Source of the DNA: an uncultured Eubacteriales bacterium
Lineage (GTDB): Bacteria > Bacillota > Clostridia > Christensenellales > Aristaeellaceae
DNA length: 42,668 bases
Direction of reading: 5' to 3'
NCBI GenBank assembly: GCA_902787475.1
Contig: CADAGW010000001.1
Coordinates: forward strand, 1-42,668
Within the stretch, counting starts at the first letter, position 1. Every line of letters starts with the position of its first letter. The notes beneath the pieces are model-generated. The model made no database searches. It had not been told where the DNA came from and saw nothing but the letters and a program-made list of their open reading frames with translations. The position numbers and the translations under genes were made by a program. Shown here piece after piece: positions 8,405 to 42,668 of the stretch.

Positions 8405-9496
8405 ATGGACAAGCTCAGGATCGGCATCATCGGCACCGGCGGCATCGCCCACGCCCACATGCGCTCGTACCTCAGGATGGACGACGTGGAGATCGTGGGG
8501 GCCAGCGACATCGTGCCCGGCAAGGCCAGGGCGTTTCTGGACGAATTCGGACTGACGCAGGTGCCCGCCTTCGAGGACAATGAGAAGCTGTTGGACCTGA
8601 AGCCCGACGGGGTCAGCGTGTGCACCTACAACACCACCCACTCCCTGTGCGCGGTGGCGGCCCTCAAAAGGGGCATAAACGTGCTGTGCGAAAAGCCCAT
8701 GTCCGTGACGCTGGATCAGGCCGCCGACATGGCCCGTGCCCAGAAGGACAGCGGCAGGATACTGACCATAGGCTTCCAGCCCCGGTACGACGAGAACATG
8801 AAGATGGTCAAGGAGATCGTCCGCTCCGGCGAATTGGGCCACATCTACTACGTACAGACCGGCGGCGGCCGGCGCAGGGGCATACCCAGCGGCTCCTTCG
8901 TGGACAAAAAGCTGGCGGGCGTGGGGTGCCTGGCCGACATCGGCTGCTACGGGCTTGACATGGCCATGAACTCCGTGGGCTACCGCAGGCCCGTGACCGT
9001 GTCCGCCTACGCTTCGGACTACTTCGGCAAGAACCCCAAGTATTTCAAGGGCGACTTCTCCGTGGACGACTTCACCTGCGCCCTGGTGCGCTTTGCCGAC
9101 GGGCTGGTGCTGGACTTCCGCATGAGCTGGGCCATGCACATGGACACCATGGGCGACACCCTGTTCCTGGGCACGGAGGGGGGCCTGAAGGTCAAGTCTC
9201 CCCACCCGGAGCTCAACTGGGGCGGGGCCTGGGACGGCTCCATAGGCGACGTGTACCTCTATAAGGACGTGTGCGGCAACCAGACAGAGACGAAGATCCC
9301 CATCAAGACCACGGTCAAGAGCGACAATTTCTACCTCAAGTGCCGGGCCTTCTGCGACGCCATACGGGAAAACGGCCCTTCCCCCATCCCCTGGCAGGAG
9401 ATCATATACAACCAGGCCATCATAGACGGCATCATCCGCTCCAGCGAGCTAAAGCGCGAGGTGGACGTGGTGATCCCCGCCGATCTGGGCCTGTAG
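8405..9496 (+). CDS. Gfo/Idh/MocA family oxidoreductase
   Basis: Rossmann N-terminus IGIIGTGGIAHAH, EKP motif VLCEKPMS. AAAGGAGA RBS. Confidence 0.85.
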   Translation: MDKLRIGIIGTGGIAHAHMRSYLRMDDVEIVGASDIVPGKARAFLDEFGLTQVPAFEDNEKLLDLKPDGVSVCTYNTTHSLCAVAALKRGINVLCEKPMSVTLDQAADMARAQKDSGRILTIGFQPRYDENMKMVKEIVRSGELGHIYYVQTGGGRRRGIPSGSFVDKKLAGVGCLADIGCYGLDMAMNSVGYRRPVTVSAYASDYFGKNPKYFKGDFSVDDFTCALVRFADGLVLDFRMSWAMHMDTMGDTLFLGTEGGLKVKSPHPELNWGGAWDGSIGDVYLYKDVCGNQTETKIPIKTTVKSDNFYLKCRAFCDAIRENGPSPIPWQEIIYNQAIIDGIIRSSELKREVDVVIPADLGL

Positions 9497-10784: not shown

Positions 10785-12506
10785 ATGCCAGTTCTTCGGA
10801 AATGGATCGCGCTGACGCTGGCCGTGGCGCTGGCGGCGGCTTTGCCCGTTGGGGCATCGGCCACGGATGACTACTGGTCTGGACCTGAAGAGTATTACCC
10901 CCACTTGGATCCATGGGAAGTGCAGTTTCCCCCGGTGCCGGAGGTTCGCTACGCGGTATATCACCGGGTCGGCTCCGTGCTGGACGCGGGCGCTTTCGCC
11001 CAGGCCCTTTGGGACGGCAAGCCCCATTGGCACAGAACCATCGGCGATATACAGGTGTACGGCATAGAAGCCCGGGACAACCCCTGGATCTCTCTTCCCG
11101 CTACTATGGTGATGAAGGAGGGTGAGCTCCAATACCAGGTGGAAGGCAACATATTTGAAGCAACCTATGATATGGTGGATCCCTCCGACTGTACCGCATG
11201 GATGGAGAAGATGTTCGCCTCCGACGCCCTCGCGCCCTATGTCGCTCTCTATGCGGGATGGACATACGAAGACGACTGGTACGCCAGCTGTTATGTGCAC
11301 TATCAGCAGGAGGCAGAGGGCGGCATCGGCCTGTTTGGCTCCGGCATCACCGCCCGGGTATGCTCCGAAGGCCCCTGGACCATGTCTGTGCGATGGGACA
11401 AGTATCACCCCGACGCGGGAGTGCCTGTGCCCGAGTATCTCTCCGCCCGGGAGGCCGTGGAACGATACAACCAGGTCTGCGACGATTACAGCATACGAGT
11501 AGACAGGCATATCACCTGGGCCATTCATGACATACGCCCCGTATATTCCGATCAATTCGGCCCAGAGGGAACATACCGCCTGTGCTGGCAGCTCCAGGTG
11601 GATGATGGTTTTGATGATGAGTTCGTCTGGTTCGCCTTAGTGGACGCGGAAACAGGCAAGGTCTGGGAAGATTGGCGCGATCTGTACGCGGAAAAGCGGA
11701 AGCCCGTTTCGACCGGCCCCTATTTTCTTTTTCATACTGTGGCGACCCCTGTCCCGGATTATGGGGAATACGCCCTGTCCCCCGCCTCCATCGACCCGGA
11801 AGCCGTGGCCCGGGCCCTGTGGGGAGACGCTGGCTGGACAGCAGAATCAAAGAACGGCCTGGAGACGTATTCCATATCTCCCCAGTTCAATCCCTGTGGG
11901 CCATATGGCGCCAGTCTCACATACGATCCCGGCGAGTGCCTGCTCCATTATCGGGCGCTGGATCTGAACGATGCGCTGAACGGGGAAAGCGATTATTATT
12001 ACTGGCCGGATGTGCTGGAGAGCTGGTTCGGTTCCAGGGGCCTTCTCGACATGTTTGGACTGAGCGAACTGGACAACGCTTGGTCCGAAGACATATATGC
12101 CAACGGAGGGCCATGGAATACCGACTCGCAATGGGAAAAGCGGATCATCTACCTGGAGCCCGAGGTGGAGTGCGGTATATTGGCCGATGGATTTGGCCTG
12201 GCAGTGGAGCTGCGTGAAAATGGGCCTGTGGAATTTACCGTCCGACTGGCAGAATACACCCCTCTCGAGGGGATCAACCCGGGGCCATACCTGTCCGCCC
12301 GGGAGGCCTGCGACCTGCTGAACCAGTACGCCATGCAGTATGAAGGCTGGGAAGATATCTGGGGGAGTGGCGATGATTGGATGCCCGTATACACCACCCT
12401 GTTTTCTCCCGAAACGTACCGGTTGGCATGGCGACTGGATACTGGTTACGACGTTTTATACGTAGACGCCTCCACGGGAAGCATATATGACAAAAACGGG
12501 CCGTAA
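10785..12506 (+). CDS. Secreted protein with an internal two-fold duplication; each half ends in a PepSY-like module
   Basis: Signal peptide MPVLRKWIALTLAVALAAALPVGASA from ATG 10785 (GGGAGG RBS). The halves share AFAQALWDGKPHW/AVARALWGDAGW, PEYLSAREAVERYNQ/GPYLSAREACDLLNQ, TYRLCWQL/TYRLAWRL and VDAETGKV/VDASTGSI. Confidence 0.7.
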   Translation: MPVLRKWIALTLAVALAAALPVGASATDDYWSGPEEYYPHLDPWEVQFPPVPEVRYAVYHRVGSVLDAGAFAQALWDGKPHWHRTIGDIQVYGIEARDNPWISLPATMVMKEGELQYQVEGNIFEATYDMVDPSDCTAWMEKMFASDALAPYVALYAGWTYEDDWYASCYVHYQQEAEGGIGLFGSGITARVCSEGPWTMSVRWDKYHPDAGVPVPEYLSAREAVERYNQVCDDYSIRVDRHITWAIHDIRPVYSDQFGPEGTYRLCWQLQVDDGFDDEFVWFALVDAETGKVWEDWRDLYAEKRKPVSTGPYFLFHTVATPVPDYGEYALSPASIDPEAVARALWGDAGWTAESKNGLETYSISPQFNPCGPYGASLTYDPGECLLHYRALDLNDALNGESDYYYWPDVLESWFGSRGLLDMFGLSELDNAWSEDIYANGGPWNTDSQWEKRIIYLEPEVECGILADGFGLAVELRENGPVEFTVRLAEYTPLEGINPGPYLSAREACDLLNQYAMQYEGWEDIWGSGDDWMPVYTTLFSPETYRLAWRLDTGYDVLYVDASTGSIYDKNGP

Positions 12507-15546: not shown

Positions 15547-15633
15547 TACAGGAACGCTGGGGCCTCCCCGGCCCCAGACCCCGGCCAAAGGGACAAGTCC
15601 CTTTGGAATCCCATCTTCCGCCTTCGGCGGGGA
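15547..15633 (+). repeat. Copy A (short form) of a structured gene-3'-end repeat family
   Basis: Shares gaacgctggggcctcccc and gccaaagggac-N-gtccctttggaatccca-N-ttccgccttcggcgggg with copies at 30960..31166 (reverse) and 42464..42668. It lacks the 111-nt core. Confidence 0.7.
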
Positions 15634-15657
15634 TATGATAATGGACTGCAGTGGCAA

Positions 15658-15699
15658 GCAAAAACGGACAGGCGCTGTATGCGCGCTTGTCCGCTTTGC
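15658..15699 (-). terminator. Long hairpin terminator after the ComEA-like gene (may act bidirectionally)
   Basis: Stem cggacaggcgc / gcgcgcttgtccg with an outer gcaaa/tttgc extension. On the minus strand it is followed by TTTTTGCTT. Confidence 0.6.
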
Positions 15700-22306: not shown

Positions 22307-22339
22307 CCGGCATGGACGTATGGCTCCATGCCGGTTTTT
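22307..22339 (+). terminator. Rho-independent terminator after the SGNH hydrolase gene
   Basis: Stem ccggcatgg / ccatgccgg followed by TTTTT. Confidence 0.7.
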
Positions 22340-22355
22340 CGCAAAGGAGGACAAT

Positions 22356-24659
22356 ATGGCCCTTCAGGATACGCTCCAGGCCGCCAAGGCCCACTCCATA
22401 CGCCGCGACACCGCCGCCCCGGACTTTTTCGAGGGCGCCCTCATGGGCAACGGAAGCCTTGGCGCCGTGGTGTGCACCCGGCCCGACGCCCTGGTGATCC
22501 ACTTCGGCCACAACGACATATGGGACATCCGCATCGAGGAAGGCCACAAGGACTGCGTGGGCACCTTTGACGAGATATGGGGCCGCATACAGGCCGCACC
22601 TGGGGACGTGCACCGGGAAAAGTGGTATCAGGAGTACGTGGAAAAGGTCACCGCCTCCTATCATGACCACGTGTATCCCCGGCCCTACCCCGCCTCCAGT
22701 CTCTATCTGTTTTTCGACCGGAAGGAATACGAGGTGCTGGGCCAGGAGACAGACATATCCACAGGGCTCTTCACCGCCGCCCTGCTGTCCTCAAACGGGG
22801 AAAAGCGGTATATCCAGGCGGTCATGGACATGGACAAAGACGCGGTGTGCGTAAGGACTGTGGACGAGGACGGCCGCGAGGCGCGCATCTTTTCCCGCCT
22901 GTGGATCCGGCCCCACCGGCCCGACGGGGGTCTGCCAGGCTATACCCTCCTGCCCCGGGGCTTTATACAGCCCCTGCCCTACAACGGCTGCGAGGGCCAT
23001 ATCCGGCCCGGGGTGGACAAGGGCTTTTCCGTGTGCTGGCGCTCCGACGGGGAGGAAGGAAAGGGTCTGGACACTCCTTTGTCCGGCCGCGGCGGCATCA
23101 CCCTTCAGATCCGGCATGGGTACTATGACCGGGTGGCTTCGTTCCCCGGGGCGGAGGAGCTTTCCTTTGACGAGGTGGCGGAGCGGACGAAACGGGCGTG
23201 GGAGGCCTACTGGTCCCTGTCCGGCGTGAGCCTGGAGGACAAGGAGCTGGAGAGGATATGGTACGTCAATTCCTACTTCATCCGCTGTCTTCTGAGCCCC
23301 GCCTCCCGCTGCCCGGGCCTGTTCGGGTGCTGGATGCTGGACGATATCGGCACCGCCTGGCACGGGGACTACCACATGAACTACAACACCCAGCAGGTGT
23401 TCTGGGGGCTGATGGCCGCCAACCGGGCCGACCTTCACATGCCCTATCTGCGGATGGTGGAGGACCTCATGCCCGTGTCCCGGGCCTGGGCCCATGACTT
23501 TTACCGTCTGGAGGGAGCCTGCTTCCCCCACTCCGCCTATCCCGTGCCCATGACGGTAATGCCCTATCCCTCCCCGGACTGGGGCTGGGAGATATTTGAG
23601 ACCCCCTGGACGGTGCAGAGCCTGTGGTGGCACTATGCCTACACCGGCGACAGGGCCCTTCTTCGGGATCGGATCTACCCCGTCCTGCGGGCGGCGGCGG
23701 CGTTTCTGGTGGGCTACATGACCCGGCCCGGGGCCGACCCGGTGGGCGACGGAAAGTATCACCTCTTTCCCACCATCGTGCCGGAGCTCTACGGCCTCAC
23801 CGAGCGCTTCCGCCTCAATCTGGACGGGGCGGTGGATCTGGCGCTGACCAAGTTCGTGCTTCATGCCCTCCTCACCGCCATACGCGACCTGGGCCTGGAG
23901 GAAAAAGAAGCGGAGCTTTCCGCCTCCGCCCGGCGCATCCTCGATCATTTTCCGGACTACCCCACCGCCCTGGGCCGGTTCGGGGAGGTGTATGTGAGCA
24001 CGGCAAACGAGGATCCGGACAGGGTGATCTACAACTGCCCGGCGAACCTCATGCAGATCTTCCCCGGGGAGGACGTGGACGCCCTGACCGCGGGAGAAGA
24101 CGACATGGCCCTGGCGGAAAATTCCTGGCGGCACCACTACAACGAGGGCGGCAACGACCTGGTGTTCTACCACCTGATCGGAGCCCGGCTGGGGTGCATA
24201 GACCTGGAGGCCTTCAAGCGCCACGTGCGCTACTGCGCCATGCCAAACGGCGCCTGCGCGGACCGGGTCACCCTCACCGGGGGCCGCTACCCCGACGACG
24301 TGGACGTGGACTTCATGAGCCGCATGGGCATATGGGTGGAGAATTTCTCCCTCTACGCCGTGGTGGACGAGTGCCTTATGTGGGGCCACGGGGACATCAT
24401 AAAGGTGTTCCCCTGCTGGGATCTTCACAAAAAGGCCTCCTTTCACTCCCTTAGGGCCCGGGGCGCGCTGCTGGTGGACGCGGCCTGCGAGGGCGGCATG
24501 GTAAACTACATACGGATCAAGAGCGAAAAGGGCAATGTGGTGCAGGTGTACAACCCATGGCCCGAGGCCGTGGATCAAAACGGCAGGATCTACACAGACC
24601 CCGTGATCCGGGCCCAACCCCTGCCCGGGCACTCCATGCTCTTTACGGAAAAGCGCTGA
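22356..24659 (+). CDS. Six-hairpin glycoside hydrolase, GH95-like (cytoplasmic)
   Basis: N-terminal GNGSLGAVV and central WHGDYHMNYNTQQVFW (N-x-N motif) resemble GH95 alpha-L-fucosidase/galactosidase signatures. No signal peptide. ATG at 22356 with an AAGGAGG RBS. Confidence 0.5.
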   Translation: MALQDTLQAAKAHSIRRDTAAPDFFEGALMGNGSLGAVVCTRPDALVIHFGHNDIWDIRIEEGHKDCVGTFDEIWGRIQAAPGDVHREKWYQEYVEKVTASYHDHVYPRPYPASSLYLFFDRKEYEVLGQETDISTGLFTAALLSSNGEKRYIQAVMDMDKDAVCVRTVDEDGREARIFSRLWIRPHRPDGGLPGYTLLPRGFIQPLPYNGCEGHIRPGVDKGFSVCWRSDGEEGKGLDTPLSGRGGITLQIRHGYYDRVASFPGAEELSFDEVAERTKRAWEAYWSLSGVSLEDKELERIWYVNSYFIRCLLSPASRCPGLFGCWMLDDIGTAWHGDYHMNYNTQQVFWGLMAANRADLHMPYLRMVEDLMPVSRAWAHDFYRLEGACFPHSAYPVPMTVMPYPSPDWGWEIFETPWTVQSLWWHYAYTGDRALLRDRIYPVLRAAAAFLVGYMTRPGADPVGDGKYHLFPTIVPELYGLTERFRLNLDGAVDLALTKFVLHALLTAIRDLGLEEKEAELSASARRILDHFPDYPTALGRFGEVYVSTANEDPDRVIYNCPANLMQIFPGEDVDALTAGEDDMALAENSWRHHYNEGGNDLVFYHLIGARLGCIDLEAFKRHVRYCAMPNGACADRVTLTGGRYPDDVDVDFMSRMGIWVENFSLYAVVDECLMWGHGDIIKVFPCWDLHKKASFHSLRARGALLVDAACEGGMVNYIRIKSEKGNVVQVYNPWPEAVDQNGRIYTDPVIRAQPLPGHSMLFTEKR

Positions 24660-30959: not shown

Positions 30960-31166
30960 CCCCGCCGAAGGCGGAAGAAGGGATTCTTAAGGGCCTATGG
31001 CCCTTAAGCCGGGGAGTTTGAGGGGGCGAACGGAGGCACCCGCCAGTGGCGGAATTGTGCCGGAGAAAGCCCAATGAGCAAAGGAGCTTTTGAATATACG
31101 CATTTCAAAAGCGACTATTGCGAATTGAGGATCGCACAGGCCTCAGCGCCTCCCTCCCCTCCCCTA
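30960..31166 (-). repeat. Copy B (full length, reverse orientation) of the structured gene-3'-end repeat family
   Basis: Its reverse complement aligns to 42464..42668. The 111-nt core differs at 4 positions by my hand alignment. The element starts right after the fucosidase stop codon. Confidence 0.75.
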
Positions 31167-32474
31167 TCAATCCTTCAGCTTCACCCTGATCACGGTATCC
31201 GTGGGATCGGGCAGTCTGGGATCGGGGCCCAGGGACACGAAGGACACGTCGGGATAGTTATTGGTGATCCAGTCCGACACCACGGGCAGCTCCGCGCCGC
31301 TCTTGACCAGCCGGACGCTGTCGATTTTGTCCCGGGGCACGCCGGGCAGGGGCACGTAGGTGATCTGGGGCTCCATGATGTGGAAATAGAGGGTATCGCC
31401 CCTGCGGGTGATGCGCCCGCAGTCGGGCTTGGGCAGACCGGACAGGCCGCAGCCGTATATGCTCTCGCTGTTTATGTCCATCCACTTGCCCACGTCCTCC
31501 AGTATGGCCAGGGACTCGGCGGGGATCCGGCCCCGGGCGTCCGGGCCCACGTTCACCAGCAGGTTCCCGCCCTTACTGACGCACTCCACCAGCTTTTTGA
31601 CCAGCATATCGCCGGACTTAAAGAACTTGTCCTGCTCGCAGTGGCCCCAGTGGTTGTTCATTGTCACGCAGGCCTCCCACACCACCGGGCGGCCCGCCTC
31701 GTCCCGTATTCCGTCGGCGGGTATGATCTGCTCGGGAGACACGAAGTCGCCGGAATACTCGCTGGGATGCTCCGTCACCAGGGACCCAAAGCCCTCGCCG
31801 CTGACCTCCAGCCGGTTGTCAATGATCACGTCCGGCAGATGGGAGCGGATCATGCGCACCAGCTTGGTGGCCCGCCAGGCCTCGCCGGTCAGATCGCCAT
31901 AGGAGAAATCGAACCAGAATATGTCGATCTTGCCGTAGTTCGTGCACAGCTCCTCCACCTGGGCGTGGAGATAGTCAAGATAGTTGTCGAAGTTCCGGGG
32001 CACGTCCTTCTCCCGCTCGTCATTCCGAAGGGGATGGTTCCTGTCGCCGTAGTGGGGATAGTCCGGATGATGCCAGTCCAGAAGAGAATAGTACAGGCCC
32101 ACCTTCAGGCCCTCCGCCCTGAAGGCGTCCAGATATTCCCGCACCAGGTCCCGCCCGCAGGGGGTATTGGTGGACTTAAAGTCGGTATACTTGCTGTCGA
32201 ACAGGCAGAAGCCGTCGTGATGCTTGGCCGTGAGCACGGCGTATTTCATGCCCGCCCGTTTGGCCGCCCGGGCCCAGGCCTTGGGGTCGTAGTCCACGGG
32301 ATTGAACTCCCGGAAGAAGGGCATGTACGCCTCCTCCGGCATCTGCTCTATGCTGCGCACCCACTCGCCCCGGGAGGGAATGGCGTACAGTCCCCAATGG
32401 ATGAACATGCCGAACCGGGCCTGGGTAAACCAGCTGACCTTCTTTTCATACGCTTCCCGATCGAACGCAAACAT
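31167..32474 (-). CDS. Alpha-L-fucosidase, GH29 (cytoplasmic)
   Basis: FGMFIHWGLYAIPSRGEW and the overall GH29 pattern. No signal peptide. The ATG at 32474 has GGAGG 8 nt upstream; the track start at 32483 is a GTG directly abutting the SD. Confidence 0.9.
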   Translation of the reverse strand: MFAFDREAYEKKVSWFTQARFGMFIHWGLYAIPSRGEWVRSIEQMPEEAYMPFFREFNPVDYDPKAWARAAKRAGMKYAVLTAKHHDGFCLFDSKYTDFKSTNTPCGRDLVREYLDAFRAEGLKVGLYYSLLDWHHPDYPHYGDRNHPLRNDEREKDVPRNFDNYLDYLHAQVEELCTNYGKIDIFWFDFSYGDLTGEAWRATKLVRMIRSHLPDVIIDNRLEVSGEGFGSLVTEHPSEYSGDFVSPEQIIPADGIRDEAGRPVVWEACVTMNNHWGHCEQDKFFKSGDMLVKKLVECVSKGGNLLVNVGPDARGRIPAESLAILEDVGKWMDINSESIYGCGLSGLPKPDCGRITRRGDTLYFHIMEPQITYVPLPGVPRDKIDSVRLVKSGAELPVVSDWITNNYPDVSFVSLGPDPRLPDPTDTVIRVKLKD

Positions 32475-32552
32475 TGACTCCACCTCCGTGTTTCTGATTC
32501 CCGACCCATTATATCACCCCCGCCGCCGTTTTGCAATCATAAGGAGGCACAT

Positions 32553-34716: not shown

Positions 34717-34732
34717 GGATTTGCACAAATCC
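34717..34732. promoter_or_regulatory. Perfect palindrome GGATTTG-CA-CAAATCC (operator candidate)
   Basis: 7-bp arms, located 31 nt upstream of the -35 of the operon promoter. A related half-site GGATTTCACAA lies at 34820..34830. Confidence 0.35.
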
Positions 34733-34762
34733 GCACTAAACCGCATTATTTTTGCGCAAGGC

Positions 34763-34791
34763 TTGAAAGTCTTGCGCATTCGCTGTATAAT
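34763..34791 (+). promoter_or_regulatory. Near-consensus sigmaA promoter with extended -10 (TTGAAA-17-TG-TATAAT) for the seven-gene operon
   Basis: TTGAAA at 34763..34768, TATAAT at 34786..34791 preceded by TG. The -35 is flanked by the inverted repeat TTGCGCAAG / CTTGCGCA. Confidence 0.6.
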
Positions 34792-34855
34792 GGCATTGGT
34801 ATTGTGAAGAGTATGGCACGGATTTCACAAAAACATATGACAGGAGGACATTTCC

Positions 34856-35644
34856 ATGAAACTTGGCGTCAATACGGTTCTTTTCAAGCCCTTCAGCGTT
34901 CTGGAGGCCATGCAGGCCATCAAGCGGGCCGGATACGACGGCGTGGAGCTTTCCGCCATCAAGGGCATGTGTGAGCACCTGGATCTGGACAACTGGAATC
35001 TTGACGAGGTGAAGGCCGCCCAGGCCGAGACCGGCATGGAGCTGTTGTCCATGGAAGTGGCGTCTCTGGACGAGGATCGCCTGCGTCTGGCCTTCAAGGC
35101 CGCCAAGGAGCTTGGCGTGCCCGTGGTGAACGTGGGCCCCGGCGGCAAGGCCGACGTGGAAGAGGACGTGGTGACCTCCATCGCCACCCTGACCGCCCGG
35201 GCCAGGATGGCCGCCGAATACGGCGTGACCCTGTGCTGCAAGGCCCACGTGGGCTGCGCCATACACGACACCCCCACCACCCTGCGTGCCATGAACGAGA
35301 TCAAGGAAGACTCCTTCGGCGTGGACATGGATCCCAGCCACATCTGGCGGGCCGGCGAGAAGCCCGAGGAGGCCCTGCCCCAGGTGATCTCCCGGGTGAA
35401 GCACATCCACATCCGCGACTGCAAGGGCCCCGGCCCCAATCCCGGACTGCCCGCCCTGCAGGCCTGCGGCCGCGGCGATATCGACCTGGTGGGCTACTTC
35501 AAGGCCCTGGTCAGCACCGGCTATCAGGGACCCGTGTGCCTGGAGGTCATCGGACCCGACCAGACCCTGGCCGAGGCTCAGGCCGTGGCGTCCGAGAGCT
35601 ACGGCTACATGAACGCCGTGCTCCGCTTCCTGGGCGGCCGCTGA
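34856..35644 (+). CDS. Xylose-isomerase-like TIM-barrel protein (sugar phosphate isomerase/epimerase family)
   Basis: MKLGVNTVLF...AGYDGVELS...HIHIRD...VCLEV pattern of the AP_endonuc_2 fold. CAGGAGG RBS. Confidence 0.85.
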   Translation: MKLGVNTVLFKPFSVLEAMQAIKRAGYDGVELSAIKGMCEHLDLDNWNLDEVKAAQAETGMELLSMEVASLDEDRLRLAFKAAKELGVPVVNVGPGGKADVEEDVVTSIATLTARARMAAEYGVTLCCKAHVGCAIHDTPTTLRAMNEIKEDSFGVDMDPSHIWRAGEKPEEALPQVISRVKHIHIRDCKGPGPNPGLPALQACGRGDIDLVGYFKALVSTGYQGPVCLEVIGPDQTLAEAQAVASESYGYMNAVLRFLGGR

Positions 35645-35659
35645 CAGGCGAGGCGCTCT

Positions 35660-36712
35660 ATGATACGCACAGGCATATTGGGCTTTGCCCACGGCCACTG
35701 CGCCGCCATCGTGAGGCAGTGGCTGGATCATCCGGAATACGGCGTAGAGGTAGCGGGCGGCTGGGATCACGATCCCACCCGTGCCCGGACCAGCTGCCGT
35801 GATTTCGGCATCCCCTGTTTTTCTTCGCTGGAGGAGATCCTCTCCTCCGGCATTTCCGCGGTACTGATCACCTCCGAGACCGGGCACCACGCATCCCTTG
35901 TGGAGGCCGCGGCCAGGGCCGGCAAGGACATCATCCTCTATAAGCCCATGGCCCTCACCATGGCCGAGGCCGACCGCATCGTGGACGCGGTGGAGAAAAA
36001 CGGCGTCCGCTTCACCATGGCCTGGCAGATGCGCACCGACCCCCAGAACCAGCGCATGAAGGACATGATCGCGGGAGAGGAGCTGGGCAAGACCTGCCTG
36101 TTCCGCCGCCGCCATTCCCTGCCCACCCAGACCTGGGCCAACTTCGGCTCCACCTGGCACTGCGACCCGGCCATGAACCGGGACATATTCGCCGACGACT
36201 CCGCCCATCCCATCAACCTGATGCTGTGGATCTTCGGCATGCCCGAGACCGTGTCCTGCGAGATGAGCACCATGCTCGATCCCGCGGTGGTCAACGACAA
36301 CGCGGTGGCCCTGTTCAAATATTCAAACGGCCTCATCGCCGAGATCTCCTGCTCCTTCACCTGCTGCGCCTCCGAGATCACCACCGAGGTGTACTGCGAG
36401 AAGGGCTCCATACAGCAGTATTTCGGCGACAATCCCTCCGCCCGGCTGCCCCGGCCAGGCAATATGCCCGGCCTCAAATGGTACCGGGAGGGAGACAAGG
36501 ACTGGACCGACAGCGGCATCCCCAGCCCCGACTCCCACGGCCCGCGGCTGGGCTGGCAGGCGGAGCCCCTTGCCCGCTTCCTGGCGGGCGCAGATCCCAT
36601 ATGCACCGCCCGGGAGGGCCGGGACACGCTGCGGCTGGTGCTCTCCTGCTATCTCTCCGCCCGTCAGGGCCGCCGGGTCAGCGTGCAGGATCCGGCCATA
36701 TATGACATTTAA
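35660..36712 (+). CDS. Gfo/Idh/MocA-like oxidoreductase, divergent (YKP in place of EKP)
   Basis: N-terminus GILGFAHGH and ILYKPMA at the position of the EKP motif. Family-like length and C-terminal domain. Confidence 0.7.
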   Translation: MIRTGILGFAHGHCAAIVRQWLDHPEYGVEVAGGWDHDPTRARTSCRDFGIPCFSSLEEILSSGISAVLITSETGHHASLVEAAARAGKDIILYKPMALTMAEADRIVDAVEKNGVRFTMAWQMRTDPQNQRMKDMIAGEELGKTCLFRRRHSLPTQTWANFGSTWHCDPAMNRDIFADDSAHPINLMLWIFGMPETVSCEMSTMLDPAVVNDNAVALFKYSNGLIAEISCSFTCCASEITTEVYCEKGSIQQYFGDNPSARLPRPGNMPGLKWYREGDKDWTDSGIPSPDSHGPRLGWQAEPLARFLAGADPICTAREGRDTLRLVLSCYLSARQGRRVSVQDPAIYDI

Positions 36713-36727
36713 GGAGGAGGAACCGCT

Positions 36728-38107
36728 ATGAGCAAGAAACCCAACCTGCTCTTTTTCGGCATCGACAGCCTGCGCCGGGACCACATGAGTCATTACGGCT
36801 ACGGCCGCCTCACCACCCCCCACATCACCGAGTACGCCAAGGGCGGCGTCACCTTCAATAAATGCTTCTCCCCCCACATCCCCACCACCCCCGGCTATTC
36901 CAACATGCTCACCGGCCGGGACTGCTTCGGCACCGACGTGGTGGGCCTGTCCCAGAGCCACATCGTGGAGGGGGTGCCCGTGCTGTCCGAAATGCTCCGC
37001 AAGGAGGGCTACACCACCACCTGCGTGGGCTTCGAGTGGAACGCCGCGGGCCGGGGCTACGACAAATACATCGACTTCCCCGGCTGGGGCCCGGACCGGG
37101 ACGACATGCGGGCTCACAAGGCCGAGGCCCTGAACGCCGTGGCCATTCCCGAATTGGACCGTCTGGCCGCCCAGGACAAGCCCTGGTTCCTGTTCCTGCG
37201 CCACATGGATCCCCACTCCCCCTATCTGCCGCCCCAGCCCTTCCAGGACATGTTCTTCCAGGGCGACGCCTTCGACCCCAACGACAAGCGGATGCAGAAG
37301 GTGTACGACTTCAAGCCCTTCGGCGACTACATCGGCTCCTGGGTACCCCAGGGCTGCACCAACCCCGAATACGTCATCGGCCAGTACGACGCCGCCGTGG
37401 CGTATATGGACTCCTGCATACAGCAGATCCTCTCCAGGCTCAAATACCTGGGCCTCGAGGAGGACACCATCGTGGTGTTCGTTTCCGACCACGGCGAGAC
37501 CCTCTACGACCACGACTGCTATTTCGATCATCACGGCATGTACGACTGCACCCTGGTGGTGCCGCTGATCATCCGCTGGAAGGGCCACCTGCCCGAGGGC
37601 GTGCGCATCGACGACTACTGCCAGCTCAAGGACGTGACCCCCACGCTTCTGGACATCATGGGCATCGACGCGGGCGTGCCCTTTGACGGGCGGAGCCTCA
37701 TGCCCCTGGTCCGCGGCCAGGAGCGCACGCCGGAGCCGGAGTTCTACATCACCGAGTGCACCTGGATGCGCAAGCACGGCTGGCGCACCCCCGAGTGGAA
37801 GCTGATGGTGTCTCTGGAGCCGGACTTCCACTATAAGCCCCAGGTGGAGCTGTACAACCTGATCACCGATCCGGATGAGAACCACAACCTGGCCGACGAG
37901 TGCCCGGAGATGGTGGAATGTCTCAAAAAGCGGATGTACGCCTGGATCGACAAGCGGGAAAAGGAAGTGGGCCGCACCGCCCCCATCTACCGCAACTTCC
38001 TGCGTCCCGAGGGCCCCTTCGCCTCCTCCAAGGAAGCCTACGAGGGCAAATACATCGGCGGCATTGCCGAGGCCGTGAAGCTGCAGGCGGCCAACAAGAA
38101 AAAGTAA
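36728..38107 (+). CDS. Sulfatase-fold (alkaline phosphatase superfamily) protein lacking the formylglycine motif
   Basis: N-terminal LLFFGIDSLRRDH metal site and SDHGE. T-T-P-G-Y-SNMLTGR replaces C-x-P-x-R-xxxxTGR. No signal peptide. Confidence 0.8.
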   Translation: MSKKPNLLFFGIDSLRRDHMSHYGYGRLTTPHITEYAKGGVTFNKCFSPHIPTTPGYSNMLTGRDCFGTDVVGLSQSHIVEGVPVLSEMLRKEGYTTTCVGFEWNAAGRGYDKYIDFPGWGPDRDDMRAHKAEALNAVAIPELDRLAAQDKPWFLFLRHMDPHSPYLPPQPFQDMFFQGDAFDPNDKRMQKVYDFKPFGDYIGSWVPQGCTNPEYVIGQYDAAVAYMDSCIQQILSRLKYLGLEEDTIVVFVSDHGETLYDHDCYFDHHGMYDCTLVVPLIIRWKGHLPEGVRIDDYCQLKDVTPTLLDIMGIDAGVPFDGRSLMPLVRGQERTPEPEFYITECTWMRKHGWRTPEWKLMVSLEPDFHYKPQVELYNLITDPDENHNLADECPEMVECLKKRMYAWIDKREKEVGRTAPIYRNFLRPEGPFASSKEAYEGKYIGGIAEAVKLQAANKKK

Positions 38108-38117
38108 GGAGGCCCTT

Positions 38118-39128
38118 ATGCTCAGAGTCTGTGTCATAGGCCTTGGCCACATCGGCAACCTCCACGCCAGCATCTACCAGGAGGACGACCTGGTGGATCT
38201 GGTGGGCGTGTGCGACATCCGGGAGGACCGGGCCCTGGCCGCCTCCAAGCGCTTCCAGGTGCCCTACTACCTGGACGCCCCCACCATGCTCCGGGAGCTC
38301 AAGCCGGACCTGGTCAGCGTGGCCACCGGCGGCTACGAATACTCCTCCGATCACTTCCTGCCCACCATGCAGGCCCTGGAGGCGGGCTGCCACGTGCTGT
38401 GCGAAAAGCCCATCAGCAACCTGATCGAGAACGGGCAGAAGATGGTGGACATGGCGGAGAAGATGAACCGCTGCTTCGCCCTGGACTTCAACCACCGCTT
38501 CACCCCCGCCGCCCGGGCGGCCAAGAAGTGGCAGGACGAGGGCCTGATCGGCGACCTTCTGTTCTGCAACATGGCCCTGTGGATCGGCAAGCCCCAGGAC
38601 TTCGAGTCCCCCTACTATCACTTAAAGGCTCTGAACCCCCACTCCTGCGAGATCATCCGCTACTTCATGGGCCCGGTGGAGGCCGTGCAGTGCTTCGCCA
38701 TGAAGGCGCCGGGCAGGACCATATGGTCCACCGCCTCCATCAACATGAAATTCGAGTGCGGCGCGGTGGGGCATCTCACCTCCTCCTACGACATCGCCCG
38801 GGGCCATCCCATGGAGCGGTGCGAGGTGGCGGGCGTGAAGGGCCGGCTGGTGTTTGAGGACATGTGGCGGGAGGCCACCCTCTACCCCGCCGGCAACCCC
38901 GAAAAGCGGGTCTACACCAACCCCGTATTCGGCGGCTACGCCAACTTCGACGACACCTTCCGGGAGCGTATCCGCTCCTTCGTGCGCCAGGTGGACCGGG
39001 GCGACAAGCCCGAGGACATCGACGGCAGCGGCCGCCAGGGCCTGGAGGCCCAAAAGGTGATCCACGCCGCCATCCGCTCCCTGGACACCGGCAAGGTGGT
39101 CTACCTGAAGGAAATGTACGGCGAATGA
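38118..39128 (+). CDS. Gfo/Idh/MocA family oxidoreductase (paralog of 39967..41082)
   Basis: VIGLGHIGNLHA, VLCEKPIS, DFNHRFT. AAGGAGG RBS. Confidence 0.85.
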   Translation: MLRVCVIGLGHIGNLHASIYQEDDLVDLVGVCDIREDRALAASKRFQVPYYLDAPTMLRELKPDLVSVATGGYEYSSDHFLPTMQALEAGCHVLCEKPISNLIENGQKMVDMAEKMNRCFALDFNHRFTPAARAAKKWQDEGLIGDLLFCNMALWIGKPQDFESPYYHLKALNPHSCEIIRYFMGPVEAVQCFAMKAPGRTIWSTASINMKFECGAVGHLTSSYDIARGHPMERCEVAGVKGRLVFEDMWREATLYPAGNPEKRVYTNPVFGGYANFDDTFRERIRSFVRQVDRGDKPEDIDGSGRQGLEAQKVIHAAIRSLDTGKVVYLKEMYGE

Positions 39129-39952
39129 ACGTCATGACCTGGGCCTCCCTGTGCAGGGACTACCATCCCGGCGACCCCCAGGTGCTGGTCATGAGCGCCA
39201 ACCACGCCGGGGTGTCCCTGCACAGCCACGAGGTATACGAAATGGTCTACGTCCGCTCCGGCTTCTGCCTGCACGAGTGCGACGACCAAATGACCCTGCT
39301 CACCGAGGGCGACTTCTTCCTGATCCGCCCTGGCCAGAGCCACCGCTACCTGGGCAGCCGGGCGGTGGAGCTGTACAACTGTCTCTTCGGCGAGGGCTGT
39401 GTGCCCGCTCGCCTGCGCTCCCATCCCCTGCTGGCCGCCTCGCCCCTGCCCCGGGCCCATCTGGACCTGAGCGAGAGAAAGGCGGTGACCCGGCTTCTGG
39501 AGCGGATCCTCGCCGAGCTTGAATCCCGGCCCACGGCCTGGGAAACGTCTGTTGAAAGCCTGCTGGGCCAGCTCCTGTGCGAATACGTGCGGGTGTCCGA
39601 GCGGCGGGGCCTCTACGGCGACACGGCGCTCTACGCGGGCTACGTCACCCCCACTCTGGCCTATATCGACCGGATGTACGACCAGGAGATCACCATGAGC
39701 GGCCTGGCCCGGGAAATGGGCGTGTCCCCGGACTACCTGACCCGCCAGTTCAAGCTCATGGCGGGCATCACCCCCCTCACCTACCTGCGCCGGTTCCGCA
39801 TCGCCCGGGCCATGGAGCTGTTGGGCCAGGGCATATCCGCCTCGGAGGCGGCACAGCGGGTGGGCTTTCACTCCCTGTCCCACTTTTCCCGGGAATTCAA
39901 GCGGGAATTGGGCATATCCCCCACGCAGTTCAAGCAACAGGAACACACATAA
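39125..39952 (+). CDS. AraC-family transcriptional regulator (cupin sensor plus HTH), embedded in the operon
   Basis: Cupin-like HSHEVYEMVYVRSG...GDFFLIRPGQSHRY and a C-terminal AraC HTH (GFHSLSHFSREFKRELGISPTQF). The ATG overlaps the upstream stop (ATGA). Confidence 0.85.
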   Translation: MNVMTWASLCRDYHPGDPQVLVMSANHAGVSLHSHEVYEMVYVRSGFCLHECDDQMTLLTEGDFFLIRPGQSHRYLGSRAVELYNCLFGEGCVPARLRSHPLLAASPLPRAHLDLSERKAVTRLLERILAELESRPTAWETSVESLLGQLLCEYVRVSERRGLYGDTALYAGYVTPTLAYIDRMYDQEITMSGLAREMGVSPDYLTRQFKLMAGITPLTYLRRFRIARAMELLGQGISASEAAQRVGFHSLSHFSREFKRELGISPTQFKQQEHT

Positions 39953-39966
39953 AGGAGGACAACATC

Positions 39967-41082
39967 ATGGCTCTCAAGACCGCTGTTGTGGGTATGGGCG
40001 GTATCGGCAATACCCACGCCACCTGCTACAAGAACAACGATTTGGCCGAGCTGGTCGCCGTGTGCGACATCGTCAAGGAAAAGGCCGACGCCGCCGCCGA
40101 GAAATTCGGCGTGCCCGCCTTCTATTCCGAGGAAGAGATGCTCAAGGCCATGCCGGAGATCGACATCGTGTCCGTCACCACCTCCGGTTACGACAACGGC
40201 TCCATGCACTTCGAGCCCGCCATGATCGCCCTGGACTACGGCAAGAACGTACTGGTGGAAAAGCCCATCTGCGCGGACGTGCGGGACGCCCGCGAGCTGG
40301 TGGCCTTCGCCAACAAGAAAAAGCTCTACCTTGGCTGTGACCTGAACCACTACTTCACCGGCCCCGCCGCCGACGCCAAGCAGCTGCAGAAGGACGGCAA
40401 GGTGGGCGAGCTGGTGTACTGCATCCACAAGGTGGGCTTCAACGGCACCCAGGACTCCTACAAGGGCCCCGGCTCTCCCCGCTGGCAGACCCCCTACTCT
40501 CACCTGAAAGCCTTCTGCGCCCATCCCTTCTCCGTGATGCGCTACTTCTGCGGCGACGTGGTGGCCCTTCAGGCCTTCCTGGACAAGCCCGGCGTCCGCC
40601 AGACCGCCGAGGATCCCATGCTGTCCATCAACTCCATCCACATGAAGTTCGCCAACGGCGGCACGGGCTATCTGATCAGCCAGCGGGGCGACGCCATGTT
40701 CGGCTACGGCGGCTGGTGGAGCTATGAGCACTGCGGCGCCAAGTCCACCTTCGCCATCGAGAACTGCGTGGAGAAGCTCCACGTGTGGGAGCCCAAGAAC
40801 AACGACCCCGAGCGGGGCACCATGAACCAGGCCACTCCCGCCCCCGTGACCAAGGAATACGGCGTCAGCGACTTCTCCTCTACCTTCCCCAACCGCATCG
40901 GCGCGTTCCTGGAGGACATCACCAACAAGGTGCCCTACGAGCACATCCGTGCCTCCGGCCGGGACGCCCTGGCCACCCTGGAATACACCTTCGCGGCCAT
41001 CAAGTCCTACGAGAACGGCGGCGCGCTGGTAGTGCCCGAGGCTCTGCCCCCGATGCACGGCGACATCTCCCTGGTGTACTGA
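39967..41082 (+). CDS. Gfo/Idh/MocA family oxidoreductase (paralog of 38118..39128)
   Basis: VVGMGGIGNTHA, VLVEKPIC, DLNHYFT. AAAGGAGG RBS at the internal ATG 39967. Confidence 0.85.
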   Translation: MALKTAVVGMGGIGNTHATCYKNNDLAELVAVCDIVKEKADAAAEKFGVPAFYSEEEMLKAMPEIDIVSVTTSGYDNGSMHFEPAMIALDYGKNVLVEKPICADVRDARELVAFANKKKLYLGCDLNHYFTGPAADAKQLQKDGKVGELVYCIHKVGFNGTQDSYKGPGSPRWQTPYSHLKAFCAHPFSVMRYFCGDVVALQAFLDKPGVRQTAEDPMLSINSIHMKFANGGTGYLISQRGDAMFGYGGWWSYEHCGAKSTFAIENCVEKLHVWEPKNNDPERGTMNQATPAPVTKEYGVSDFSSTFPNRIGAFLEDITNKVPYEHIRASGRDALATLEYTFAAIKSYENGGALVVPEALPPMHGDISLVY

Positions 41083-41083
41083 T

Positions 41084-42463
41084 ATGAATCTGCTGATCGT
41101 CAACGCGGACCAGCTGCGGCATGACATGATCGGTTTTCGGGGTCTTCATCCGGTGAAGACCCCGAATTTGGATCGTCTGGCCGCGGCCTCTACGGTATAC
41201 ACCCGGGCCTTCACCCCTGTGCCTGTGTGCGCCCCGGCCCGGCAGGCCCTTCTCTGCGGGCGGCATCCCGATTCCTTCGGGGCCTCCTGGAACTACGACC
41301 AGATGAAGACCCTGCCCACCCCCACGGTACAGCCCGCCTGGTGCTGGACCCGGCACCTGCCGGACATGGGCTATCAGACGGCCTACCTGGGCCGCTTTCA
41401 CGTGTCCCCCACCTGTAAGCCCGCGGACTTCGGCTACCAGCGGCACGTCAGCTGGCAGGGCCACAAGGATCTTCTCAAATCCAAATACGCCGACGCGGCC
41501 TTTACCGGCGGCTGGCTGGGGTGCACCAGTCCCATCCCCCTGGAGGACACCGGCACCCACTGGATGGCCCGTCAGGCCTGCCAGGTGATCGATGAATTCG
41601 CCGCGGCGAACAAGCCCTGGCACATCTGGGTGGACTACGAGGAGCCCCATCTCCCCTGCCGGCCCAGCGAGCCCTTCGCCAGTATGTATTCCCCCTCCGG
41701 CGTGGACCAGTGGGACGGCTACGGCGACACCTTTTTCCACAAGCCCTACATCCACCGCCAGCAGACCATCTCCTGGGACACGGACGGCTACTCCTGGGAC
41801 GATTTCTCCCAGATGGTGGCCCGGTACTACGCGGTGGTGTCCCAGCTGGACGACGCCATAGGCCGGATCCTCACCAAGCTGGAGGAAACGGGTCAGGCGA
41901 ACGACACCATCGTAGTGTTCACCTCCGACCACGGCGACATGTGCGGCAGTCACCAGATGCTGGACAAGCACTACGTACTCTACGACGACATATGCCGGGT
42001 GCCCTTCATGGTTCGCTATCCCGGCAAGGCGCCCTCCGTGCGGGACGATTTCGTATACAACGTGCTGGATCTGCCCGCCTCCATCGTCCGCTGGCTGGGT
42101 CTTCCGGCCCAGGAGGTGGAGCACGGCGCGCCCCTGCCCCTGTCCCGCGACGAGAACCCCTGCCCCCGCTCCTTCGTGTCCTCTACCGGCGAGGGCCAGC
42201 AGATGGGCCTGTATTCCACCCGCATGATCCGGGACGACCGCTACAAATACGTGTGGAATCTGACGGACGTGGACGAGCTCTACGATCTGGACTCCGACCC
42301 CGGCGAGAAGGTGAACCTCATCGACCGGCCGGAGCACTCTGACCGCGTCGCCGCCATGCGCCGCCTTCTCCACGACCACCTTCTCACCCACAATGATCCC
42401 TTCGCCGGCAACGGCTGGATGGAGAACCAGCTCCTCCGCGGCCGCAAGCACGTGCCGTGGTGA
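41084..42463 (+). CDS. Cys-type sulfatase (cytoplasmic)
   Basis: Canonical C-A-P-A-R-QALLCGR formylglycine motif, N-terminal ADQLRHD, SDHGDMCGSH. No signal peptide. The start lies 1 nt after the upstream stop. Confidence 0.9.
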   Translation: MNLLIVNADQLRHDMIGFRGLHPVKTPNLDRLAAASTVYTRAFTPVPVCAPARQALLCGRHPDSFGASWNYDQMKTLPTPTVQPAWCWTRHLPDMGYQTAYLGRFHVSPTCKPADFGYQRHVSWQGHKDLLKSKYADAAFTGGWLGCTSPIPLEDTGTHWMARQACQVIDEFAAANKPWHIWVDYEEPHLPCRPSEPFASMYSPSGVDQWDGYGDTFFHKPYIHRQQTISWDTDGYSWDDFSQMVARYYAVVSQLDDAIGRILTKLEETGQANDTIVVFTSDHGDMCGSHQMLDKHYVLYDDICRVPFMVRYPGKAPSVRDDFVYNVLDLPASIVRWLGLPAQEVEHGAPLPLSRDENPCPRSFVSSTGEGQQMGLYSTRMIRDDRYKYVWNLTDVDELYDLDSDPGEKVNLIDRPEHSDRVAAMRRLLHDHLLTHNDPFAGNGWMENQLLRGRKHVPW

Positions 42464-42668
42464 GAGGCGAGGGGAGACGAGGAGACGCTGGGGCCTCCCC
42501 GATCCTCAATTCGCAATAGTCGCTTTTGAAATCCGTATATTCAAAAGCTCCTTTGCTCATTGGGCTCTCTACGGCACGATTCCGCCACTGGCGGGTGCCT
42601 CCGTTCGCCCCTCAGACTCCTCGCCAAAGGGACATTGTCCCTTTGGAATCCCATTTTCCGCCCTTCGG
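42464..42668 (+). repeat. Copy C (full length, forward, truncated by the window end) of the structured gene-3'-end repeat family
   Basis: Begins right after the sulfatase stop codon. Modules: purine-rich lead, gacgctggggcctcccc, the 111-nt core, hairpin ccaaagggac-att-gtccctttgg, then aatcccattttccgcccttcgg. Confidence 0.75.

Follow-up and report, generated by a model that had tools for sequence, protein, structure and literature searches.

A run of seven co-oriented genes in a 42,668-nucleotide (nt) stretch of contig CADAGW010000001.1 (GenBank assembly GCA_902787475.1), which comes from an uncultured Eubacteriales bacterium of the Aristaeellaceae and is called here, in its whole length, the window, forms a single conserved unit that stands behind a single promoter, itself preceded by a conserved box. 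The unit encodes a xylose-isomerase-like TIM barrel protein (TIM), three Gfo/Idh/MocA oxidoreductases (GFO1, GFO2 and GFO3), an AraC/XylS-family regulator (AraC) and two cytoplasmic proteins of the S1 sulfatase fold (SulA and SulB). By its active-site motifs SulB is a canonical Cys-type formylglycine sulfatase, whereas SulA, because Thr replaces the catalytic formylglycine-forming residue, cannot by the same motifs be a normal sulfatase and belongs, judging from its homologues, to a large uncharacterised threonine-type clade. The account preferred here, which falls somewhat short of being probable, is that the operon specifies an inducible cytoplasmic pathway in which an imported sulfated carbohydrate or cyclitol would be converted to a common sugar by desulfation, NAD-dependent oxidation, isomerisation or elimination, and reduction. 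The component families and their redox logic are already known; the operon architecture, the Thr-type S1 derivative and the pairing of the core with either a sulfatase or a sulfotransferase are not.

The seven genes span positions 34856-42463 of the plus strand in the order TIM-GFO1-SulA-GFO2-AraC-GFO3-SulB (Table 1), with successive spacers of 15, 15, 10, -4, 14 and 1 nt. Open reading frame (ORF) listing and reads of the junctions returned the seven same-strand genes and all six spacers exactly as in the original prediction, which a model had made from the letters of the window and a list of its ORFs. Its family assignments were likewise recovered with Pfam, one TIM barrel, three Gfo/Idh/MocA, one AraC and two sulfatase-fold proteins all scoring well above the gathering scores of their families, as was the absence of N-terminal signal peptides from all seven products, in which the mature fold begins at residues 1-6. 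The AraC start codon overlaps the GFO2 stop codon as ATGA and the gap between GFO3 and SulB is 1 nt, and both AraC and SulB look positioned for translational coupling; strong Shine-Dalgarno sequences precede TIM, SulA, GFO2 and GFO3. A terminator scan gave three plus-strand sites, two of them inside the operon (at 37171 in the SulA gene and 39297 in the AraC gene), all three being short 5-pair stems within coding sequence, and since the nine terminator-like sites of the region are not above the number in shuffled sequences (6.9 +/- 2.9), no listed site was taken as a functional terminator. That all seven genes share a single transcript is supported indirectly by their spacers, by synteny, by the apparent coupling and by the failure to find a convincing terminator within the operon.

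The sigma-70-type promoter lies in the 152-nt intergenic gap that follows a HelD-like gene. Promoter-like sites are not above chance in the region (2 against 1.8 in shuffles), and the site is credited because of its position in that gap and because the -10 hexamer TATAAT is found at the equivalent place in orthologous loci (L005, L009-L013, L016-L019 and L027; related loci are referred to by L numbers), in keeping with the single near-consensus promoter originally proposed. A box common to the upstream regions of related loci, TTTGNNNRAATCCG, matches the window once when both strands are searched (0.02 expected), and reads TTTGCACAAATCCG there. In 1.32 Mb of related loci the box has 18 matches, 12 of which stand on the coding strand 100-205 nt 5' of the TIM start; these 12 belong to loci with an embedded AraC, except for two in L010, a contig cut off short of the AraC position. 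In L014 and L018 two boxes stand 21 nt from each other. The box looks like an AraC-family operator and is put forward as a candidate only. The regulator itself (PF12833, 83 bits; PF00165, 54 bits; PF02311, 43 bits) has the composition that defines the AraC/XylS family, a C-terminal double helix-turn-helix (HTH_18/HTH_AraC) joined to an N-terminal cupin. In the related loci with the seven-gene order, or with that order less GFO1, it always lies between GFO2 and GFO3, a position shared by at least 16 related Clostridia loci at 32-46% identity, so that the mid-operon AraC pointed out in the original prediction is a conserved feature. RhaS/RhaR-type activators have the same cupin and double helix-turn-helix, RhaS being the best NCBIfam match at 70 bits, and they too are associated with direct-repeat boxes 5' of the -35 hexamer; AraC differs in scoring below the cut-off of the RhaS model (288) and in being encoded amid structural genes, where it appears translationally coupled to GFO2.

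A scan of one genome per species returned at least 566 matching stretches, from which 80 loci at 57-82% identity were kept for neighbourhood statistics based on our own ORF calling and BLAST clustering; they represent Clostridia, Paenibacillus, Bacillus, Planctomycetota, Verrucomicrobiota, Lentisphaerae, Spirochaetes, Chloroflexi, Armatimonadota and others. SulA homologues at 63-82% identity are abundant in metagenome-assembled genomes (MAGs) of Clostridia and Christensenellales. The TIM-SulA-GFO2 triad is syntenic in about 91% of the 70-75 usable loci, from many phyla, with TIM directly 5' of SulA in 64 of 70 and a GFO2-type gene 3' of SulA in 68 of 75, and GFO2 identity across phyla is 62-91%. 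The other members come and go: among 47 well-flanked loci, GFO3 is present in 28, AraC in 25, SulB in 19 (in Clostridia with SulB, directly 3' of GFO3 throughout) and the accessory GFO1 in 11, always between TIM and SulA. The exact seven-gene order, embedded AraC included, recurs in Clostridia of gut and rumen (L011, L017, L018 and L027, human, sheep and goat gut MAGs), and a six-gene form without GFO1 is found in the cultured Bianquea renquensis (L026) as well as in L005, L009, L013 and L040. In the original prediction the substrate could derive from mucin, fucoidan or glycosaminoglycan; the carriers, among them Paenibacillus of soil, Planctomycetota of peat and freshwater, Verrucomicrobiota, and inhabitants of digesters and rumen, have a distribution that does not point to a host glycan. 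That the block is conserved in Clostridia and the triad across many phyla bears out the idea of one functional unit and argues against chance juxtaposition. The view that the genes are merely adjacent and share no pathway, to which the chance-level count of promoter-like sites in the region might lend some colour, is accordingly given next to no credence: the spacers of -4 to 15 nt, the want of a convincing internal terminator and, above all, an order that recurs in many genera and a triad that recurs in many phyla bring it close to refutation. Conservation of the triad across phyla at 57-82% identity suggests a strongly constrained function, which nobody has assigned. Full-text literature on Thr-type sulfatases, PAPS-dependent catabolism (PAPS, 3'-phosphoadenosine 5'-phosphosulfate), 3-keto chemistry, pathways with a cytoplasmic sulfatase and the combination of genes itself was searched, and no description of the gene cluster was found; RefSeq names of its genes are generic; together with NCBIfam scores far below the cut-offs and the lack of a described ortholog, this upholds the suggestion that the pathway had not been described.

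The two sulfatase-fold proteins, both assigned PF00884 and SGSH_C by Pfam, differ at the active site. SulB (PF00884, 141 bits) alone carries the C-x-P-x-R formylglycine motif, read as C-A-P-A-R-Q, and in alignment with the solved structure 6pt4 and with SulA its motifs N-A-D-Q, G-R-F-H, E-P-H-L-P, S-D-H-G and L-D-K make up the full metal- and sulfate-binding set; C-x-P-x-R is kept in 24 of 25 SulB orthologues, the 25th being a failed extraction. Carbohydrate sulfatases are its nearest solved relatives, the best match being the exo-2S-iota-carrageenan S1 enzyme 6pt4 (phmmer E 9e-46). SulB would need a maturase encoded elsewhere, since a search of the window agreed with the earlier observation that no sulfatase maturase (anSME/FGE, radical-SAM) is encoded in it. 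As in the cytoplasmic S1 carbohydrate sulfatases of Firmicutes and marine carrageenan degraders, such as PsS1_NC (6pt4) and that of Hungatella hathewayi (6ust), the formylglycine signature is complete, a signal peptide is absent and the setting is a sugar-import locus; SulB differs from these enzymes in that its alignment with 6pt4 is distant and that no lyase or glycoside hydrolase lies beside it. The Mn-arylsulfatase of Enterococcus known from the literature is a Cys-type enzyme.

SulA (PF00884, 161 bits) aligns with SulB over its whole length at 24% identity, its I-P-T-T-P-G-Y falling on the C-A-P-A-R of SulB and on the S/C-x-P-x-R of the choline sulfatase 7oz8, and the choline sulfatase alignment agrees with the SulB alignment on the catalytic residues. 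The formylglycine signature C/S-x-P/A-x-R is thereby broken, T-T-P-G-Y standing at the aligned position with Thr53 for Cys and Tyr57 for Arg. G-F-E-W-N takes the place of the G-K/R-x-H loop and F-D-H-H that of L-D-K, and the cationic sulfate-binding equivalents of Arg55, Lys113, His115 and Lys375 (AtsA numbering) are missing, while the metal ligands Asp13 and Asp254-His255 and the P-H-x-P histidine are retained. The substitution is the rule among relatives: in the 120 closest SulA homologues the pattern I-P-T-[TS]-[PS]-G-Y has Thr in all 107 sequences that match it, and among the best 150 representatives at 50% identity, out of 97,434 relatives at E <=0.001 in an exhaustive search, the nucleophile site is Thr in 126 and Cys in 3 of the 130 sequences that cover it. 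The original prediction of two sulfatase-fold proteins thus stands as to the fold, for both, but does not amount to two sulfatases, SulA having neither the formylglycine nor the sulfate-binding residues. The SulfAtlas authors cautioned that Thr-bearing PF00884 members cannot form formylglycine and that the label 'sulfatase' needs evidence in their case (PMC5066984). An AlphaFold model of SulA, built on a 15-sequence alignment with a mean predicted local distance difference test score (pLDDT) of 68 and below 50 in the nucleophile loop, served the fold search alone, and its neighbours, to be read with the low confidence of the model, were S1 sulfatases and phosphonate monoester hydrolases (template modelling score, TM, 0.54-0.59).

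Phosphoryl transferases of the LtaS, EptA/MCR and NPP types work with a Thr nucleophile and an Asp/Asp-His metal site. SulA is thus a derivative of an S1 sulfatase that carries a Thr-plus-metal centre of their kind: like LtaS, EptA/MCR-1 and NPP it has Thr at the nucleophile position together with acidic and Asp-His metal ligands, but it is soluble, ends in the SGSH_C domain of S1 sulfatases and is nearest to S1 sulfatases and phosphonate monoester hydrolases by sequence and by fold. The likeness raises the possibility that SulA is a phosphoryl-transfer enzyme (a phosphatase, phosphodiesterase or phosphomutase) acting on a phosphate mono- or diester, such as a sugar phosphodiester or an inositol phosphate derivative, with the sulfate genes secondary. 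In line with this view, NCBIfam and Pfam models of EptA, LtaS and Phosphodiest match SulA locally, at about residues 205-270, as are the SulfAtlas caution and an extra PF01663 protein beside the core in L029. It is nonetheless rated improbable, as the recurrent partners are sulfate-specific (formylglycine sulfatase, sulfotransferase, adenosine 5'-phosphosulfate (APS) kinase and CysDN) rather than sugar kinases or phosphatases, the closest relatives of SulA are not LtaS or EptA, whose family models it matches with only 23-43 bits against cut-offs of 500-970 over residues 193-315 (NCBIfam), and no hydrophobic N-terminus of the kind expected for an LtaS/EptA-type membrane domain was found in SulA.

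TIM and the three oxidoreductases are recognisable at the level of their superfamilies. TIM (PF01261, 98 bits over residues 20-242) keeps invariant E, KAH, DMDPSH, HxHIRDC and LE (LEvIG) motifs across 68 orthologues, which may be metal ligands by analogy only, and would, as a putative isomerase, beta-eliminase or dehydratase, have a keto intermediate for its substrate. Its best NCBIfam scores are 40 bits for hydroxypyruvate isomerase (cut-off 353) and 38 for IolE (290), a further one being 19 against 300, so that it lies below every equivalog cut-off among IolE, IolI, hydroxypyruvate isomerase and psicose epimerase, and its best Protein Data Bank matches have E values of 6.5e-6 or weaker, with no close characterised relative. 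GFO1, GFO2 and GFO3 all consist of a Rossmann and a C-terminal alpha/beta domain, with PF01408 at 74-95 bits (GFO2 91, GFO3 94.5) and PF22725 at 81 bits in GFO1, 46 in GFO2 and 26.0, just under the gathering score of 27, in GFO3. The EKP motif is found in GFO2, where it is conserved, and in GFO3, the GFO1 family having Y/x-K-P and G-x-A-H-G-H variants. An acidic residue after beta2 of a Rossmann domain is taken as a sign of NAD use, and its occurrence here suggests that the three enzymes use NAD. The best NCBIfam match of all three is IolG (81-107 bits against 355, GFO2 reaching 107); levoglucosan dehydrogenase (NF052479) scores 48-55 against 650, the glycoside 3-dehydrogenases BT_2158/BT_2159 23-45 overall (at best 35 against 750 and 45 against 650) and UDP-GlcNAc 3-dehydrogenase at best 103 against 450. 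With the sulfatase-fold proteins at 168-205 bits against 481 for arylsulfatase PRK13759, none of the six enzymes reaches an NCBIfam equivalog cut-off, and the solved relatives of the GFO and TIM proteins are remote.

A fourth Gfo/Idh/MocA gene of the window (8405-9496, plus strand) adjoins a GAPDH gene; it has 62 nt surrounding the EKP motif in common with GFO2 and GFO3 (direct repeat family D2).

Gfo/Idh/MocA enzymes together with xylose-isomerase-like TIM barrels mark the levoglucosan, 3-keto-glycoside, C-glycoside and inositol routes. There the ketone formed by oxidation opens the way to isomerisation or beta-elimination, after which the alcohol is regained with a second Gfo enzyme. The levoglucosan pathway (LgdA/LGDH, LgdB1, LgdB2 and LgdC) runs in this manner from oxidation through elimination and hydration to reduction, redox-neutral overall and ending in a common sugar; it resembles the present operon in having Gfo dehydrogenases with one or two TIM barrels (13 related loci have a second TIM) and no kinase in the cluster, and differs in the absence of sulfatase-fold, sulfotransferase and PAPS genes as well as in the low GFO scores given above. 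In the routes of Bacteroides BT2156-BT2160 and DgpA-DgpB/C, too, Gfo oxidation activates a sugar for a TIM-barrel lyase, and GFO2 and GFO3 count DgpA among their best solved relatives, whereas the matches are confined to the N-terminal Rossmann half (E about 1e-13) and a DgpC-like partner is lacking here. Catabolism of myo-inositol (IolG, IolE, IolI) likewise pairs a Gfo dehydrogenase with a TIM barrel, and IolE and IolI are among the best matches of TIM; no iolB, iolC, iolD or iolJ is found here, and the IolG and IolE scores rule out equivalogs. The kinship with DgpA, inositol and 3-keto-glycoside enzymes that had been supposed holds at the level of the superfamily and nothing closer was found, either in NCBIfam or among solved relatives.

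In Clostridia and Paenibacillus the layout is that of an inducible sugar-utilisation locus, with a predicted cupin-type AraC, a candidate operator, a CUT1 importer and a hydrolytic sulfatase. An SBP_bac_1 binding protein and two BPD_transp_1 permeases follow within tens of nt 3' of SulB in L001, L005, L011, L017-L019, L026 and L027; the binding protein of these relatives is of the sugar CUT1 type, the one of L005 having only distant solved relatives with mixed ligands. In the nearest relatives (L005, L009, L010, L011 and L013) a 318-amino-acid aldolase of the 2-keto-3-deoxy-6-phosphogluconate/2-keto-4-hydroxyglutarate type (PF01081) stands directly 5' of TIM, the place held in the window by the HelD-like helicase. 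Under the preferred account, AraC would bind a sugar-like inducer through its cupin domain and activate transcription from the TTTGNNNRAATCCG box, and since it is encoded inside its own operon a positive feedback is proposed. SulB would remove a sulfate ester, one Gfo/Idh/MocA enzyme would oxidise a ring hydroxyl to a ketone with NAD+, the TIM metalloenzyme would isomerise the activated intermediate or beta-eliminate from it, and another Gfo/Idh/MocA enzyme would reduce the product, which would make the whole redox-neutral as in the levoglucosan and 3-keto-glycoside routes. The metal-bound Thr of SulA might cleave or transfer a second anionic ester that is beyond the reach of a formylglycine sulfatase. 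As the operon contains no kinase or aldolase, the product is presumably a common sugar that housekeeping enzymes can take over.

Several observations weigh against this account. No transporter is encoded in the window, as had been remarked at the outset; the statement is true and uninformative, because the window stops 205 nt past SulB, where relatives have the ATP-binding cassette (ABC) importer, and the attempt to obtain longer DNA yielded neither the exact SulB protein on record nor, in a 24-nt exact search of metagenome contigs, any match. The role given to SulA is a placeholder, and a simple second desulfation by SulA is argued against by the loss of the sulfate-binding Arg, Lys and His. 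A near-consensus promoter has no obvious need of an activator, and no enzyme scores at an equivalog cut-off. A sulfate-related neighbour is absent from 15 of the 47 well-flanked loci, and many loci have the core with a sulfotransferase, APS kinase and CysDN instead of, or besides, a sulfatase. A plain sequence of desulfation and then oxidation does not explain these sulfotransferase and PAPS variants.

The variants came to light when unassigned neighbouring ORFs were clustered and Pfam was run on the cluster representatives. Recurrent partners of the core are sugar ABC permeases and binding proteins, Sulfotransfer_3 (15 loci), APS kinase (14 loci), CysD, CysN/APS-kinase, a second TIM barrel (13 loci) and SulA', a Thr-type paralogue with the motif I-P-T-E-V-A-H or I-P-T-H-P-S-F. 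The variable partners are mostly sulfate-ester genes, either SulB or a sulfotransferase with PAPS synthesis, and at least one sulfate-related gene lies near the core in 32 of the 47 well-flanked loci, by which comparative genomics reinforces the link to sulfate-ester metabolism made in the original prediction. The sulfotransferase has no significant solved relative. As the preferred account leaves these variants outside, its main rival, which is held to be unlikely, is that sulfate is an obligatory handle, so that TIM, SulA and GFO2 would act on a sulfated intermediate whose sulfate ester serves for recognition or activation, in the way that glycolysis uses phosphate; the sulfate would be added by PAPS and a sulfotransferase in organisms that import the precursor unsulfated and would come ready-made on the substrate in others, including the present one, and it would be freed only at the end, by SulB or, from an activated keto or enol sulfate, by SulA. 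Much of the comparative evidence can be read in this way. Bacteria of the Planctomycetes-Verrucomicrobia-Chlamydiae group carry the same enzyme families with a sulfotransferase in the stead of SulB, in the order GFO3-TIM-GFO1-SulA-sulfotransferase-GFO2 in Planctomycetota and Verrucomicrobiota, and in the Brocadiia MAG L050 (3995-13171) one co-oriented run of CysD, CysN/APS-kinase, GFO3, TIM, GFO1, SulA, sulfotransferase and GFO2 joins complete sulfate activation to the enzyme set of the window operon, and its neighbourhood contains no importer. L029, a Clostridial MAG from a digester, unites CysN/APS-kinase, CysD, APS kinase, a sulfotransferase and the PF01663 protein with TIM-SulA-GFO2-GFO3-SulB, and L003 has TIM-SulA-sulfotransferase-GFO2 followed by a CysQ-like Inositol_P protein. 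In Paenibacillus a two-component system and a sugar ABC importer precede GFO3-TIM-SulA-GFO2'-cysC-SulA'-AraC-SulB, the APS kinase gene cysC always being directly 5' of SulA' (14405-16392 in L089, a P. cellulositrophicus plasmid, and L057, L075 and L078-L083). Sulfotransferase and SulA' never occur in one locus, and one may ask whether the two stand in for each other functionally. The notion of a handle has to contend with the cost of PAPS, which at several ATP equivalents ill suits catabolism in anaerobes, with the 15 loci that have no sulfate gene nearby, and with the lack of a biochemical precedent for such a scheme. A threonine sulfo-enzyme would, by analogy with Cys-to-Ser sulfatase mutants, be hard to hydrolyse.

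The sulfotransferase-bearing loci also admit the reading that the cluster serves to build or modify a sulfated small molecule, for instance an osmolyte, a signal or an envelope precursor, and not to break one down; the window version would then be a salvage or turnover form. The planctomycetal L050 and L074, which carry PAPS synthesis and/or a sulfotransferase with GFO, TIM and SulA amid housekeeping neighbours and no importer, fit a biosynthetic role; the sugar-utilisation layout of the Clostridia and Paenibacillus loci, with AraC or a two-component AraC, CUT1/Opp-type importers and a hydrolytic sulfatase, and the absence of a sulfotransferase from the window version, do not, and the reading is considered quite doubtful. 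Two further candidates were dropped. Reverse sulfotransfer for a gain of energy or PAPS was set aside, such transfer from alkyl sulfates being regarded as thermodynamically implausible, and a role of SulA as a CysQ-like 3'-phosphoadenosine 5'-phosphate phosphatase was ruled out, SulA occurring without any sulfotransferase and L003 having an Inositol_P protein of its own.

Beyond the preferred account, it may be proposed, as a bold and rather unlikely generalisation, that the SulA-type clade evolved from S1 sulfatases by exchange of formylglycine for Thr and that the TIM-SulA-GFO2 triad is the heart of a phylum-spanning sulfate-ester sugar metabolism, with sulfate as the handle and with formylglycine-independent transfer or cleavage of sulfuryl groups. 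That the core pairs with a hydrolytic sulfatase or with a full module of sulfate activation and sulfotransferase hints at chemistry beyond simple desulfation. Sulfatase counts are widely used to infer the degradation of sulfated glycans by gut, rumen, soil and marine bacteria, and SulA-type proteins are annotated as 'sulfatase' or 'arylsulfatase A-like'; because these proteins cannot make formylglycine and Thr is the rule among the closest representatives, such counts are inflated. The cultured carriers, Bianquea renquensis and several Paenibacillus and Bacillus strains, make the question directly testable.

Table 1. Coordinates of the operon, its upstream elements and other features of the window (position 1 is the first letter of the window; aa, amino acids).
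Feature	Position	Strand	Description
Upstream box	34720-34733	+	TTTGCACAAATCCG; candidate operator of the embedded AraC, 30 nt 5' of the -35 hexamer
Promoter	34763-34791	+	sigma-70-type, TTGAAA-17 nt-TATAAT; 11/12 consensus positions
TIM	34856-35644	+	xylose-isomerase-like TIM barrel, 262 aa
GFO1	35660-36712	+	Gfo/Idh/MocA oxidoreductase, 350 aa; accessory cluster member
SulA	36728-38107	+	cytoplasmic S1-sulfatase-fold derivative, 459 aa; Thr53 in place of formylglycine
GFO2	38118-39128	+	Gfo/Idh/MocA oxidoreductase, 336 aa; core member
AraC	39125-39952	+	AraC/XylS-family regulator, 275 aa; N-terminal cupin, predicted ligand-binding domain
GFO3	39967-41082	+	Gfo/Idh/MocA oxidoreductase, 371 aa
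SulB	41084-42463	+	predicted cytoplasmic Cys-type formylglycine S1 sulfatase, 459 aa
GH95	22320-24659	+	
GH29	31167-32483	-	alpha-L-fucosidase, no signal peptide; 6.5 kb from GH95
Repeat element	42464-42668	-	about 200 nt, hairpin-rich; runs off the window end, in the place of the ABC-transporter genes of relatives
Repeat copy	30960-31160	+	131-nt stretch (31023-31153) 93% complementary to the 42464-42668 copy
Short third repeat copy	~15560-15690		without the central ~110 nt

Outside the operon, the window carries genes for housekeeping and sporulation that are those of a high-GC organism of the Clostridia type (BipA, RF3, GAPDH, Lon, GerM and the CCA enzyme), together with genes for GH95, GH29 and the fourth Gfo protein. 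The GH29 fucosidase had been adduced as a pointer to the substrate of the operon; this argument fails, and GH29 was rejected as a member of the system, none of 88 related loci having a homologue of GH29, GH95 or HelD in the surrounding 10 kb. Inverted copies of the repeat element flank an 11.3-kb segment with GH29, the HelD-like gene and the operon. No RNA family was found in the window with Rfam, the repeat included, and the element could be MITE-like (miniature inverted-repeat transposable element) or REP-like (repetitive extragenic palindrome). A predicted secreted protein of about 570 aa without a Pfam match (10785-12506, plus strand; signal peptide MPVLRKWIALTLAVALAAALPVGASA) is encoded in the lowest-GC stretch of the window.

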